Assembly: GCA_902594515.1 (NCBI GenBank)
Contig: CACJML010000002.1
Span: forward strand, 128,911-192,910
Source: an uncultured SAR86 cluster bacterium
GTDB taxonomy: Bacteria > Pseudomonadota > Gammaproteobacteria > Magnimaribacterales > D2472
Direction: 5' to 3'
Length of the DNA: 64,000 nucleotides
How positions within the stretch are numbered: the first letter of the stretch is position 1; each line of letters starts with the position of its first letter. The notes under the pieces were generated by a model that saw only the letters and a program-made list of their open reading frames with translations, searched no databases and was not told where the DNA came from. The position numbers were made by a program, and so were the translations under genes. Below, piece after piece: positions 10,973 to 63,149 of the stretch.

Positions 10973-11027
10973 ATGCGTATTATATGAAAAAGCATCAAAA
11001 AAAACTGCCTTAACGTGCTCTATATAT

Positions 11028-11055
11028 AAAAAAAAAGGGGCTAAAAAGCCCCTTT
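11028..11055 (-). terminator. Rho-independent terminator after TonB receptor 1
   Basis: Minus strand: AAAGGGGCT-TTTT-AGCCCCTTT followed by a U-run (A9 on + strand at 11028-11036). Confidence 0.88.
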
Positions 11056-52846: not shown

Positions 52847-53401
52847 CGTGACTCCTGTCTGACCTTGGTACTTGCCTTTACGATCTTTGTAAGATGTTTC
52901 GCAATCCTCATCGGATTCCAAGAAAATCATTTGAGCAACACCCTCACCTGCATAAATTTTTGCCGGTAGCGTTGTAGTATTAGAAAACTCTAGAGTTACA
53001 TGACCTTCCCATTCAGGTTCAAGTGGAGTTACGTTAACAATAATGCCGCATCGAGCGTAAGTCGATTTCCCCAAACAAATGGTTAATACGTTGCGAGGAA
53101 TCTTAAAATATTCAATCGTTCTTGCTAGCGCAAATGAGTTAGGCGGAATCACACAGACATCTGATTTCACATCAACAAAACTATTTTCATCAAAGGATTT
53201 GGGATCAACGGTTGCTGAATTAATGTTAGTAAAAACTTTAAACTCATCTGCACAACGCACGTCGTAACCAAAACTTGAAACCCCGTAAGAAATAATTTTA
53301 TTACCGCTGTCCGCATCTCGGACTTGATTCTCAGTAAAGGGTTCAATCAACTGGTGCTCTTGAGCCATCTCCTTTATCCATTTATCCGATTTAATTGTCA
53401 T
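52832..53401 (-). CDS. dcd: dCTP deaminase
   Basis: '[13 protein letters not shown]', 'GKSTYARCG', 'PLEPEWEG', '[11 protein letters not shown]'. Confidence 0.95.
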
Positions 53402-53988
53402 GAAATATCAATCCTCCCTTGAATCGCTCTAGCAATTGTATTGCTATCTACATACTCTAATTCACCGCCGATAGGAATGCCATGAGAAATTCTTGAAACC
53501 TTCACATCGCTAAGATGATCTTTAATAAAATAAGCCGTTGCATCACCCTCAACGGTCGAGCTGGTGGCCAAAATAACTTCTTCAATATGATCGGTTTTAA
53601 TGTATTGCAACAAATCCGGAATACCCAAATCTTCAGGAGCGATCCCATCAATGGGTGAAAGTCTTCCCATCAGTACAAAGTAGCGTCCTTTAAATCCACC
53701 TGTAGATTCAATGGCTAAAACATCTGAAGGACTTTCAACAATACATAGACTACTCTGATCTCTTGAAGAATCCGAGCAGATTCGACAATATTCATCACTG
53801 GTTAAAATACGGCATTGCTTACAACGTTGAACATTCTCTAAAGCCTCTTTGAGAGTATCCCCAAGATAAGCTGCACCATCTTTGTTCTTATCGAGTAAAT
53901 ACAAAGCCATACGTTGCGCTGATTTTTTCCCCACCCCAGGCAAAATTGTAAGTGCCTCAATTAAGTCAAATAAAAGATCTCGTTTCAT
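53398..53988 (-). CDS. recR: Recombination mediator RecR
   Basis: HhH '[11 protein letters not shown]', Zn finger 'CKQC...CRIC', Toprim 'VESPSD', '[12 protein letters not shown]'. Confidence 0.96.
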
Positions 53989-55595
53989 TCTTTAGTGCTA
54001 ATAGAATCAGGTTCAATTGTGCCATCAAATGATTTAAGAATCTCTGAAATTATTGGCTGCTTTTCAAGCTCTTCAATAGTGGACTGTAAATTTTGATTAG
54101 CAATTTTTTCTTTTAATAAAGAGGGTGAGTTAGTCACGTTACCCTCCTCGATCACAACTTCCGGCCTCACTTTAAAATGCTCCTTACATTTATCACTAAA
54201 CTCCTCAAGCAATGCTGATGTTGGAGACGAAAAATTCTTAGGCTTCACTAAGACCAGCTTATTGCCGATTACATCTTTGAATTCAAGCTCACTGAAAAGT
54301 TGATAACAGATGCCATTTAAACCTAATTGCTCAAAATCTTTTGCCCAGTCGCTAATGTAAAGAGATTCCACAGACGCTGCTTTGCCGTTGGTTGCAGAAG
54401 CTTTAATTTTTTTATCTGGCTGTTTTAATTTAACTTCCTCTTTTACCTTCTTCTCAGGAGGTTTACTCACATCAGCTTTTATCTGGGGTTTAGGATTTTT
54501 TTTTTCGTTTATTTGAGGCTTGGACTCATTTAAGGGGTGAAAGGATAGCATTCTCAATACGCACATTTCTACAGCCTGGTAAGGACTCGGATGAACAGAA
54601 AATTTCTCTAAAGCATTAATGGCTATTTGATATAAAAGTTGTAGCAGTTCACCGTCAACAGAATTTGCAAGCCTAACAAGATCCTCATCCTCAGATCCAA
54701 GTTGTTGCGTCATGGTTAATTGGTGCATTAGGTCTATCAATGCCTCAATCACTTTTTGATAATCGACCTGTAGCTCTAAGATACGCTGTAACGAATGGTG
54801 TGCGCCCTCTCCATTGCCTGCGAGAATATGCTCAACCAACTCAAATAAATAGACATCATCAATGGTGCCCAGCAATTCCTTCACTTGGCTGGTTTCAAGT
54901 TTTCCAGCTCCGAATGCGATTGCTTGATCAAGCAAGGTCAAACCATCGCGAACCGATCCTTGTGCACTTTGTGCAATCAATTGAGTGGTTGCGGGATCAT
55001 GTTCAATGCCCTCTTTATCTAAAATGGTATTCATATGATTGGCTATTTGAGTCTGCGCTACCGCTTTAAGGTTGAGTTGCAAGCATCGAGAAAGCACTGT
55101 CTTAGGAACCTTATCTAGTTCGGTGGTCGCCATCAAAAAAATCATATGCGGAGGTGGTTCCTCTAAAGTTTTTAAAAGTGCATTAAACGAGCTTTTTGAT
55201 AGCATGTGCACTTCATCAATGAGGTAGATTTTATAATTTGCATTTGCGGGTTTATACACTGCAGATTCAAGCAAATCTCGCATATCATCCACACCCGTTC
55301 TTGAGGCAGCATCAACTTCAATAAATTCTAAATGATGACCCGATTTAATTTCCTCACATGCCGAACAGGTATCGCAGGGCTCTGATGCCGCACCACGATT
55401 ATGACAGTTGAGGGCTTTAGCAAGGATTCTTGCTATGGTGGTCTTTCCAACTCCTCGAGTGCCACTAAAAATGAAAGCCTGATGCAGGTTTCCGCTTATT
55501 AAACTATTCTGAAGGGCTTGTAAAATATGGTCTTGGCCAACCACTTCTGCAAATAAAGCAGGTCTGTATTTACGCGCTAATACCTCATATGACAT
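53985..55595 (-). CDS. dnaX: DNA polymerase III subunit tau/gamma
   Basis: 'YEVLARKYRP', Walker A 'GTRGVGKTT', Zn module, 'IDEVHMLS', SRC motif 'LSRCL'. Confidence 0.96.
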   Translation of the reverse strand: MSYEVLARKYRPALFAEVVGQDHILQALQNSLISGNLHQAFIFSGTRGVGKTTIARILAKALNCHNRGAASEPCDTCSACEEIKSGHHLEFIEVDAASRTGVDDMRDLLESAVYKPANANYKIYLIDEVHMLSKSSFNALLKTLEEPPPHMIFLMATTELDKVPKTVLSRCLQLNLKAVAQTQIANHMNTILDKEGIEHDPATTQLIAQSAQGSVRDGLTLLDQAIAFGAGKLETSQVKELLGTIDDVYLFELVEHILAGNGEGAHHSLQRILELQVDYQKVIEALIDLMHQLTMTQQLGSEDEDLVRLANSVDGELLQLLYQIAINALEKFSVHPSPYQAVEMCVLRMLSFHPLNESKPQINEKKNPKPQIKADVSKPPEKKVKEEVKLKQPDKKIKASATNGKAASVESLYISDWAKDFEQLGLNGICYQLFSELEFKDVIGNKLVLVKPKNFSSPTSALLEEFSDKCKEHFKVRPEVVIEEGNVTNSPSLLKEKIANQNLQSTIEELEKQPIISEILKSFDGTIEPDSISTKE

Positions 55596-61447: not shown

Positions 61448-62155
61448 ATGATGGAATTTACGCCATTTCAAATGTTCGGGCCACAGCATATGCTGACTAT
61501 ATTCGCTACGTTTGGGATTGCTTTAATCGTTCCTTATTACTTTAAAAACAGTGATATGGAGACAAAAAAAATTGCGGGTATCTCAATTTCAGTCATTATT
61601 GCTTATCAGCTGATCACCCAAGCATTCACCACGTTTACCTTTAATCTGCCTTGGCAAGAAGCACTGCCATTACACATGTGCGATATGTCAGCCATGGCGA
61701 TCATGATTTACTTATTTAATCGTAAAAAAGTATTTTTTAATTGTGCCTTCTTCTGGGGTTTGGGTGGAGCCAGCATGGCGATACTAACGCCTGATGTGCT
61801 CTTTGAGTTCCCAGAACAACAATACCTACCATTTTTTGTGATCCATGGATCAATTCTTTTGGGTGTATTTTATGCTTGCATAGTTCTCAATCAACGCCCA
61901 TTCCTAGCCGATGTGCATAAAGTAATCTTTATCACGATTATTTGCATGGGAATTATTTATGTACTGAATTTGCTTCTAGGTGAAGGTGCAAACTTCTGGT
62001 ATTTATTGAAAAAACCTGAAGCCGGTTCCATCATGGATATGTTCCCCGAACCTCCATTCCATTTATTGATAACCACGCCCATAGGAATTGTGCTGTTTTA
62101 TCTAATTTATTCACCACTATTGATTAAAGACCTCCTGGCTAAGCGTGCAGCATAA
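61448..62155 (+). CDS. YwaF/TIGR02206-like integral membrane protein
   Basis: 'FGPQH', 'LPLHMCD', 'AILTPD', 'HGSI', 'ANFWYL..KP'. Confidence 0.8.
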   Translation: MMEFTPFQMFGPQHMLTIFATFGIALIVPYYFKNSDMETKKIAGISISVIIAYQLITQAFTTFTFNLPWQEALPLHMCDMSAMAIMIYLFNRKKVFFNCAFFWGLGGASMAILTPDVLFEFPEQQYLPFFVIHGSILLGVFYACIVLNQRPFLADVHKVIFITIICMGIIYVLNLLLGEGANFWYLLKKPEAGSIMDMFPEPPFHLLITTPIGIVLFYLIYSPLLIKDLLAKRAA

Positions 62156-63149
62156 CTTCAAATCTTACGTTGCTGAGATTGAAAAAACACATAGTATTAT
62201 TGAGCCGCACATTCAAAATACTCCACTGCTAAATTCTAAAGATCTGGATGCAAAACTTGGGATGCAAATCTTTTGTAAGGCTGAAAACCTTCAGGTTACA
62301 GGATCTTTTAAAATACGCGGTGCACTCTCCGCGATTTCAAGGCTTACCGATGAGCAACTTAAACAAGGAGTTTTGGCTTACTCATCTGGCAACCATGCCC
62401 AAGGCGTCGCAATGGCAGCTAAATGTTATAAAACTAATGCAACAATCATAATGCCAAAAGATGCTCCAAAAATAAAAATACAAAATACGAAACTATTAGG
62501 CGCAAATATTCTCTTTTATGATCGAGATAAAGATAATAGAGAAGATATTGGAGAAGAGATTGCAAGAGAAGATAACTTAACTATCATCAAGCCATATGAC
62601 TCCCTTGAAACAATTTTTGGTCAAGGTACTACAGCACTGGAGGCGATTCAGCAAACTGATGTAATGATTGATTCTTCAATAATTTGTGCTGGTGGTGGTG
62701 GTTTATCTGCAGGCTGTTCAATAATTTTAAAAAAGAAATATCCAGAAATTAAAATATATACTGCAGAACCTGAGGACTGGAATGATCATGAGATTTCTTT
62801 CAAACATAAGAAGATTTTTACTTCATCTAACTCAGGTTCGAGACTATGTGATGGCATTTTAACTAGGCAACCTGGAAAAATACCTTTTTCAATAAATTTG
62901 GCGCTAAATTTAAGGGGCTTATCTTGCGAAGAAGCTTATGTTTTTAAATCAATTAAATTGGCTAAGGACGTTTTTGGTATAAATCTAGAGCCAAGTGGGG
63001 CCATTGCTCTGGCAAACCTGATAAAGCATAAAGAACACTTCTTAGATCAAAGTGTATTAATTTTTTTTTCAGGCGGGAATATTGATCCTCAAACTCTAAA
63101 CTTGTGTCTTTCTAATGCTGAAAATAATAATGATATTATAGATATTTAA
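62145..63149 (+). CDS. PLP-dependent serine/threonine dehydratase family protein
   Basis: 'KAENLQVTGSFKIRGA' (PLP Lys), 'SSGNHAQG', 'GQGT', 'AGGGGL', 'EPSGA', 'SGGNID'. Confidence 0.88.
   Translation: MQHNFKSYVAEIEKTHSIIEPHIQNTPLLNSKDLDAKLGMQIFCKAENLQVTGSFKIRGALSAISRLTDEQLKQGVLAYSSGNHAQGVAMAAKCYKTNATIIMPKDAPKIKIQNTKLLGANILFYDRDKDNREDIGEEIAREDNLTIIKPYDSLETIFGQGTTALEAIQQTDVMIDSSIICAGGGGLSAGCSIILKKKYPEIKIYTAEPEDWNDHEISFKHKKIFTSSNSGSRLCDGILTRQPGKIPFSINLALNLRGLSCEEAYVFKSIKLAKDVFGINLEPSGAIALANLIKHKEHFLDQSVLIFFSGGNIDPQTLNLCLSNAENNNDIIDI

Follow-up and report, generated by a model that had tools for sequence, protein, structure and literature searches.

A conserved A10 run in dnaX of SAR86 bacteria as a candidate slippage site for a minimal gamma subunit

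Recoding of dnaX by ribosomal frameshifting in Escherichia coli and by transcriptional slippage in Thermus, like the generation of a short DnaX form by proteolysis in Caulobacter, is textbook knowledge, and the debate over the purpose of that short form, gamma, is more than 30 years old. SAR86 bacteria are among the most abundant bacteria of the ocean, genome-streamlined, and uncultured. Here, a stretch of 64,000 nucleotides (nt) from a SAR86 cluster bacterium (contig CACJML010000002.1; the whole stretch is called the window below) was analyzed, whose dnaX gene contains an uninterrupted run of ten A residues (A10) just behind the part encoding clamp-loader domain III. A first-pass annotation had proposed that programmed slippage at this run yields the full-length tau protein plus a minimal gamma, without deciding between a transcriptional and a ribosomal slip. 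Comparison of the run, its codons, and the adjoining stops supports the proposal, and the evidence favors a transcriptional slip.

The closest described system is dnaX of Thermus thermophilus: its run is A9, tau is read in the zero frame, both other frames contain stops, and the tau:gamma ratio is about 1:1 (PMC1088944; PMC5009743, summarising Larsen et al. 2000 and Yurieva et al. 1997). SAR86 dnaX also combines a sense-strand A run of at least 9 nt, a single zero-frame open reading frame (ORF) for tau, and near stops in both shifted frames, such that every slip by other than a multiple of three nucleotides would lead to gamma, and ribosomal stimulators are needed in neither system. It differs in that the run is A10 instead of A9, that the predicted gamma lacks the linker, and that the host is an AT-rich mesophilic gammaproteobacterium, in which slippage is predicted from the sequence. 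With E. coli, SAR86 shares the gene, a slippery sequence of Lys codons, and, by prediction, the outcome, in which tau is accompanied by a gamma cut short at its C terminus a few codons past the shift. The E. coli cassette, however, consists of A_AAA_AAG, an upstream Shine-Dalgarno (SD)-like site, and a downstream stem-loop and is represented in Rfam as the DnaX element, whereas SAR86 lacks the AAG, the SD-like stimulator, the 3' hairpin, and the Rfam match. Furthermore, the E. coli site is located at codons 428 to 430 and gives a gamma of 431 amino acids (aa), whereas the SAR86 site corresponds to approximately E. coli residues 372 to 375, so that gamma would be about 57 to 60 residues shorter.

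Three further systems resemble the locus in part. The two-ORF dnaX genes described by Antonov et al. (2013) have an A10 run for which transcriptional realignment was proposed (PMC3711429), but there the zero frame ends just past the run and slippage makes tau, whereas in SAR86 the zero frame encodes tau and slippage would make gamma. A10-type runs in AT-rich gammaproteobacterial genes, which are conserved by selection and whose reading relies on polymerase infidelity, are known from Buchnera and Blochmannia (Tamas 2008 and Wernegreen 2010, as cited in PMC5009743 and PMC6260861); slippage there rescues genes frameshifted at the DNA level, whereas the SAR86 gene is intact and slippage would add a shorter product. 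In Caulobacter crescentus, a single gene likewise gives rise to two forms of DnaX, an argument for selection on gamma itself (Vass & Chien; bioRxiv 10.1101/2022.11.10.516041), but gamma is obtained there post-translationally, by ClpXP proteolysis of tau and without a recoding signal. No paper dealing with SAR86 together with dnaX was found in the literature library searched. The slippage mechanism as such is known; SAR86 adds a very cleanly conserved case, not previously reported for this lineage.

The A10 run and its predicted products

The run was confirmed in the sequence and the ORF at the codons and template positions given by the first-pass annotation (Table 1). Only the range of 54478 to 54506 stated there has to be amended, since the AAC codon quoted with it (54507 to 54509) falls just outside; the other numbers were right. 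The minus-strand context reads CCT CAA ATA AAC GAA AAA AAA AAT CCT AAA CCC CAG ATA AAA GCT and contains the heptamer A_AAA_AAA in phase, GA[A AAA AAA]. The run had been called the longest homopolymer noticed within a coding sequence, and it is in fact the longest anywhere in the 64-kb window.

The predicted products, i.e., a 368-aa protein ending in EKKKS and a 371-aa protein ending in EKKILNPR, with their two stops and a size of about 41 kDa, were all reproduced by simulating different run lengths. Specifically, A10 gives tau (536 aa, 59.5 kDa), A11 gives the EKKKS product (368 aa, 40.7 kDa), A9 gives the EKKILNPR product (371 aa, 41.1 kDa), A12 gives a protein of 372 aa, and A13 gives tau with one additional Lys. 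The two stops sit 2 and 5 sense codons past the second AAA. According to the alignment with structures in the PDB, residues 1 to 355 of the window protein match residues 1 to 362 of E. coli gamma, and residue 362 corresponds to E. coli residue 370. The site thus lies at the end of domain III, as had been supposed, and coincides with the end of the crystallized gamma(1-373). As in Thermus, a run of at least 9 nt is placed between domain III (ending at about residue 362) and domain V (starting at about residue 414), and tau is a single zero-frame ORF of 536 aa.

Conservation of the run, its codons, and the adjoining stops

By composition alone, the A10 run is not beyond chance within the window, with one A10 observed versus 4.3 +/- 2.6 expected from dinucleotide shuffles of the 64 kb. 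The single-window statistic was therefore dropped, and the case rests on comparative tests. Long runs of A or T are otherwise depleted, which counts in favor of slippage: A9-mers were observed four times versus 12.4 expected from the shuffles, and the coding sequences, which make up 96% of the window, contain only two runs of at least 9 nt, the A10 of dnaX and one T9.

For the ortholog scan, contigs of one genome per species were searched with the 52-aa domain III segment upstream of the run as query, so that the sampling was unbiased by the run. Eighty SAR86 species loci were retrieved, 79 of which could be evaluated (L130 is cut before the run). All 79 runs lie 18 to 27 codons past the CxLRML motif, in the linker just after domain III; the run is A10 in 71 species representatives and A9 in the other 8 (GAA AAA AAA ACT), although protein identity is as low as 43 to 52%. 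The aligned position and codon phase are identical in 78 of the 79, the exception being L150, which has A8 at the usual place and A10 about six codons further on in another phase; L153 carries A10. Among the matches listed for a query with the whole protein, the six SAR86 species representatives (45 to 96% protein identity) all have exactly A10 in the same codon phase, and the closest nucleotide match to the window (95.9%) is the single-cell genome AG-919-P19. The same 52-aa query gave 80 metagenome contigs with 66 A10 runs, 12 A9 runs, one A8 run, and one A10 run with an upstream frame error. The check for conservation in orthologs that had been proposed along with the slippage site thus returned A9 or A10 in 79/79 species representatives and 77/80 metagenome contigs, the latter with tau in frame. 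No intact SAR86 dnaX gene has a run below 9 or above 10 nt.

These data bear on the alternative that the run is a neutral chance homopolymer or an artifact of sequencing or assembly. Its points of support are the roughly four A10 runs expected per 64 kb from dinucleotide composition and the susceptibility of homopolymers to assembly error, 3 of 80 metagenome contigs having frame-breaking variants (L166, L170, and L212), as homopolymer error or polymorphism would give. On the other hand, many projects and about 80 species show the same run at the same site, whether the source is a single-cell genome, a metagenome-assembled genome (MAG), or a metagenome contig. Every one of the 77 genome loci with recoverable dnaX keeps tau in frame through the run, 76 of them with an ORF of 480 aa or more, and of the 15 members listed (40 read) for the 560-member cluster of the window protein, 13 are full length at 536 aa. 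Of the two short members, one is a fragment at a contig end, and the other is a gene split in a 'pilon' long-read assembly, with the break near codons 400 to 414, not at the run. The dnaX genes of L120, L152, and L241 are split by 1-nt indels, likewise downstream of A10 and not at the run: L120 carries one A more than L214 and L217, inserted six codons past the run, and L152 and L241 are 'pilon' assemblies with breaks near other short A runs. All three breaks are probably assembly errors. The conservation data effectively refute chance or artifact as an explanation, and we assign it a negligible probability.

Selection on the nucleotide sequence was assessed with 76 full-length SAR86 dnaX genes (43 to 97% identical to the window protein), for which 20 other columns with Lys or Glu conserved to at least 90% served as controls. 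The run codons are GAA in 71/71 cases, AAA in 76/76, and again AAA in 76/76. In the control columns, AAG accounts for 156 of 676 codons and GAG for 249 of 821 (23 to 30%), and synonymous variation occurs in 20/20. Invariant columns therefore number 3/3 in the run versus 0/20 among the controls (Fisher p ~6e-4, by our own arithmetic). Orthologs breaking the run with AAG or GAG, which the first-pass annotation had named as one observation that would speak against its proposal, were not found, there being no synonymous change in the three run codons in any of the 76 genes. The codon comparison shows that purifying selection acts on the nucleotides of the run throughout the SAR86 order, and it appears to exclude AT bias plus a constraint on the protein alone as the cause.

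The stops in the shifted frames were compared with background positions in the same genes. Both shifted frames are closed within 5 codons in 92% of the SAR86 species versus 19% of the background positions, in agreement with the flanking stops expected by the first-pass annotation to be conserved. Considered separately, the -1 frame is closed within this distance in 97% of the species (background, 57%) and the +1 frame in 95% (background, 40%); in these AT-rich genes, background positions reach a stop after a median of 4 codons in the -1 frame and of 8 in the +1 frame. The closure holds over 49 distinct 12-nt 3' contexts, and the SAR86 consensus G-A10-T-T-Y-T/A-A-A-A places a TAA directly past the run in one or the other shifted frame.

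The run might alternatively be kept for a reason unrelated to recoding, such as the E-K-K-N peptide encoded with AT-biased codons, or a DNA A-tract serving, e.g., as an internal promoter, truncation being a tolerated by-product. K365, K366, and N367 are indeed invariant in the protein, the genome is AT-rich, and AAA makes up 78% of all Lys codons. Against this stand the absence of AAG and GAG from 223 run codons, as opposed to 23 to 30% at other conserved Lys and Glu columns, and the setting of the motif, an invariant K365-K366-N367 island among linker residues that are otherwise unconserved in the SAR86 protein alignment. In addition, neither strand shows a promoter-like or terminator-like site at the run, there is selection against long runs elsewhere, and stops are kept in both frames. 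We regard a non-recoding role as very unlikely. The run is, with high confidence, a selected recoding signal yielding a truncated gamma.

Transcriptional slippage versus ribosomal frameshifting

The RNA:DNA hybrid of about 9 bp in the elongating polymerase can re-register without mismatch only if it lies entirely within a homopolymer. On the T10 template of SAR86 dnaX, the rA:dT hybrid would be wholly inside the homopolymer and could shift by one or more bases without mismatch, resulting in a pool of messages that differ in run length (A9, A10, A11, A12, A13, etc.). Those with 10 or 10 + 3n A residues would encode tau (536 aa, in some cases with an extra Lys), whereas the remaining messages would lead to a stop 2 to 6 codons past the run and hence to a gamma of about 41 kDa (368 to 372 aa). 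Such a gamma would comprise clamp-loader domains I to III only. With neither the linker nor domain V, which binds alpha, it could join the clamp loader but would be unable to tether the polymerase. A length of 9 nt is where bacterial RNA polymerases slip and where selection against runs becomes apparent (PMC1088944; PMC6260861). We consider programmed transcriptional slippage of the Thermus thermophilus dnaX type the probable main mechanism.

The first competing explanation is that -1 programmed ribosomal frameshifting on A_AAA_AAA, i.e., the E. coli mechanism without stimulators, produces most of the gamma. It would be in keeping with the correct phase of the heptamer, with the -1 stop two codons on, and with the use of A_AAA_AAG frameshifting in the same dnaX region by related Gammaproteobacteria. 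A heptamer, however, needs only 7 nt, and a run kept at 9 to 10 nt argues against a ribosomal shift as the main route. A_AAA_AAG is by far the shiftier ribosomal site compared with A_AAA_AAA, with AAG being shiftier in the A site (PMC5009743), and yet AAG as the second Lys codon occurs in 0/76 SAR86 genes. The +1-frame stop is maintained as well, which is needless for a -1 shift and is expected if insertions and deletions of A both occur.

Stimulatory elements likewise speak against the ribosomal route. SD-like 4- to 5-mers are present within 30 nt upstream in 20 of 76 SAR86 genes (26%) and in 18% of the background windows, i.e., they are not enriched, and the window sequence has no SD-like motif upstream of the run. 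No stable 3' stem-loop was found: the downstream 50 nt have a mean minimum free energy of -2.4 kcal/mol (z = +1.0 versus windows of the same gene) and are thus less structured than these. Folding of the upstream 50 nt, including nascent-RNA hairpins of the type associated with slippage in insertion sequence (IS) elements, is average (z ~0), and a scan with Rfam, including its DnaX frameshift element, gave no match at E <= 10. In contrast, nine gammaproteobacterial dnaX genes with in-phase A_AAA_AAG, which served as positive controls, mostly have GGAG(G) 12 to 17 nt upstream (SD motif in 6/9), GC-rich hairpins of 7 to 10 bp downstream (-16 to -23 kcal/mol), and a -1 stop 1 to 3 codons later. 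The window contains no tRNA-Lys gene, so that no tRNA argument arises for or against ribosomal shifting. On balance, ribosomal frameshifting as the main source of gamma is unlikely.

The second competing explanation places the truncation in translation as well: ribosomes would slide on the poly(A) stretch and exit in any frame, perhaps with some transcriptional slippage in addition. In E. coli, ribosomes are reported to slide along homopolymeric A stretches that encode Lys (Koutmou et al. 2015; PMC4363877). Sliding would also account for the closure of both shifted frames. It is reportedly described for A stretches longer than three codons, which we count against it here. Moreover, the sharp lower limit of 9 nt fits the RNA polymerase threshold documented for dnaX, mxiE, spa13, and Buchnera genes (PMC1088944; PMC6260861). 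We give ribosome sliding little credence.

Several points weigh against transcriptional slippage as the explanation. Slippage by the SAR86 RNA polymerase, accumulation of gamma, and a function of gamma are all things that we infer. Baranov et al. caution that some AT-rich bacteria may have evolved suppressed slippage on A9 or T9 (PMC1088944). A -1 ribosomal shift on the in-phase A_AAA_AAA gives the same EKKKS product, which makes a translational share possible. Off-frame stops are common in AT-rich genes, such that the stop signal is only moderate (per-gene percentile, ~0.13), and the 76 sequences of the codon test are phylogenetically related, so that naive probabilities overstate its significance.

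An otherwise disfavored run of 9 to 10 nt, present in an essential gene of every SAR86 species examined and with the escape frames closed, argues that a second DnaX form is under selection even in pared-down genomes, and the location of the run suggests that a gamma of domains I to III alone is sufficient. The mechanism would not surprise the specialist; what gives the site its value is that it is universal in a dominant ocean lineage that is streamlined and uncultured, that the gamma would be minimal, and that the prediction is testable with existing metatranscriptomes. Current SAR86 annotations list tau only. In metatranscriptomes, the site would look like indel errors, and from the same reads, the slippage of the polymerase of an uncultured organism could be measured in situ. 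Single-ORF sites of the Thermus type are hard for standard frameshift finders (PMC1088944; PMC4066793).

Related sites in other Gammaproteobacteria and the dnaX gene region

Among 74 dnaX genes from Gammaproteobacteria other than SAR86, 11 have an A9 to A11 run after domain III and 9 have an in-phase A_AAA_AAG. Near stops in both shifted frames accompany 9 of the 11 poly(A) loci, these nine having A9 to A10 runs (L015, L022, L030, L036, L039, L060, L070, L075, and L076). The hosts of these nine loci include Thiotrichaceae, Sedimenticola, Methylococcaceae, Pseudohongiella, and other MAGs, and some of the runs stand in a GC-rich context, such as ccgccgccgggcA10gcggctag in L060. In the remaining two, L034 (a Cycloclasticus MAG, A11) and L052 (A9), the zero frame ends just past the run, with the rest of tau encoded in a shifted frame (-1 A in L034, +1 A in L052); unless homopolymer errors in the MAGs are responsible, both look like the two-ORF type of Antonov et al. 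A full E. coli-like cassette at codons ~381 to 390, with GGAG(G), A_AAA_AAG, a GC hairpin, and the -1 stop in this order, is found in L009, L013, L014, L025, L055, L063, and others, which belong to Halieaceae, Luminiphilus, and related MAGs. Marine Gammaproteobacteria of fairly closely related lineages thus alternate between the two recoding solutions. The comparison suggests that Thermus-type poly(A) sites in dnaX are widespread and under-reported.

It is conceivable, though we put this forward only tentatively, that stimulator-free transcriptional slippage on poly(A), and not the textbook E. coli cassette, is the common route to gamma in marine Gammaproteobacteria, with SAR86 representing a 9- to 10-nt element at the domain III boundary, the smallest natural gamma, and clades with A9 or A10 tuning the tau:gamma ratio. 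If so, the retention of the element by a streamlined lineage would be strong natural evidence that gamma is functionally required.

The features of the locus are listed in Table 1. The identity of the protein as DnaX is evident from the curated dnaX model TIGR02397 (411 bits; cut-off, 250) and from the alignment with E. coli gamma/tau structures in the PDB (E = 2e-102). The Pfam families PF13177 (residues 21 to 178), PF22608 (lid; 183 to 231), and PF12169 (domain III; 235 to 353) were matched, and all three parts that define the DnaX family, the N-terminal AAA+ clamp-loader module, the lid, and domain III, are thus present. Domain V after the recoding site, which marks the protein as tau, was recognized via PF12170, weakly in the window protein (residues 414 to 532, profile positions 21 to 142 of 142; 18 bits, below the cut-off, E = 0.0034) but in six of seven SAR86 orthologs, the best at 5e-9; these matches bear out the C-terminal tau domain that had been placed downstream of the run. 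In contrast to domain V, the DnaB-binding domain IV (PF12168) was not matched by Pfam in any of the seven SAR86 DnaX proteins. The tau linker is poorly conserved in the SAR86 protein alignment, and SAR86 tau is short (520 to 561 aa); its helicase-binding region may be strongly reduced.

Table 1. Features of the dnaX locus in the window
Feature	Position in window	Strand	Description
dnaX coding sequence (CDS)	53985..55595	minus	Zero frame encodes tau, 536 aa, 59.5 kDa; identified by ORF, TIGR02397, NF005942, and Pfam
Clamp-loader domains I to III (AAA+ module, lid, collar)	54507..55595	minus	Codons 1-363; common to tau and predicted gamma
A10 slippery run (T10 on the template, i.e., window plus strand)	54496..54505	minus	CDS nt 1091-1100, codons 364-367, GAA AAA AAA AAT, E-K-K-N
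TAA stop for +1 A (or -1 ribosomal shift)	54490..54492	minus	Closes the 368-aa product ...EKKKS
TAA stop for -1 A (or +2 A)	54479..54481	minus	Closes the 371/372-aa product ...EKK(K)ILNPR
Tau-only Lys/Pro/Glu-rich linker	54357..54495	minus	Begins right after the run, ends at about codon 413, ~45 residues
Tau-only C-terminal domain V (binds polymerase alpha subunit)	53988..54356	minus	Codons 414-536; PF12170

The gene order on the minus strand between 52832 and 56056 is recX-dnaX-recR-dcd, with recX upstream and recR and dcd downstream of dnaX; there is no ybaB between dnaX and recR. The dnaX stop and the recR start share 4 nt (ATGA, 53985 to 53988), and recR and dcd likewise share 4 nt (53398 to 53401). 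If recR is translationally coupled to dnaX, one might speculate that gamma-type messages, on which ribosomes would stop about 500 nt upstream, would lower recR translation.

Additional A7 to A9 runs occur in the linker just past the main run in several SAR86 species, e.g., at codon 380 in L002 (A9), at codon 382 in L005 and L006, and at 54407 to 54413 in the window; they are not conserved in position. The second long homopolymer within a coding sequence of the window, the T9 at 63061 to 63069 on the plus strand (ATT TTT TTT TCA, ...LIFFSGGN...), is located 91% along an ORF of 334 aa (62145 to 63149), which by eye resembles an enzyme of the pyridoxal phosphate (PLP)-dependent threonine dehydratase/serine racemase type. 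The only other A9 in the window is intergenic (11028 to 11036) and lies close to an A8 (10997 to 11004) in one of the few gaps between genes.

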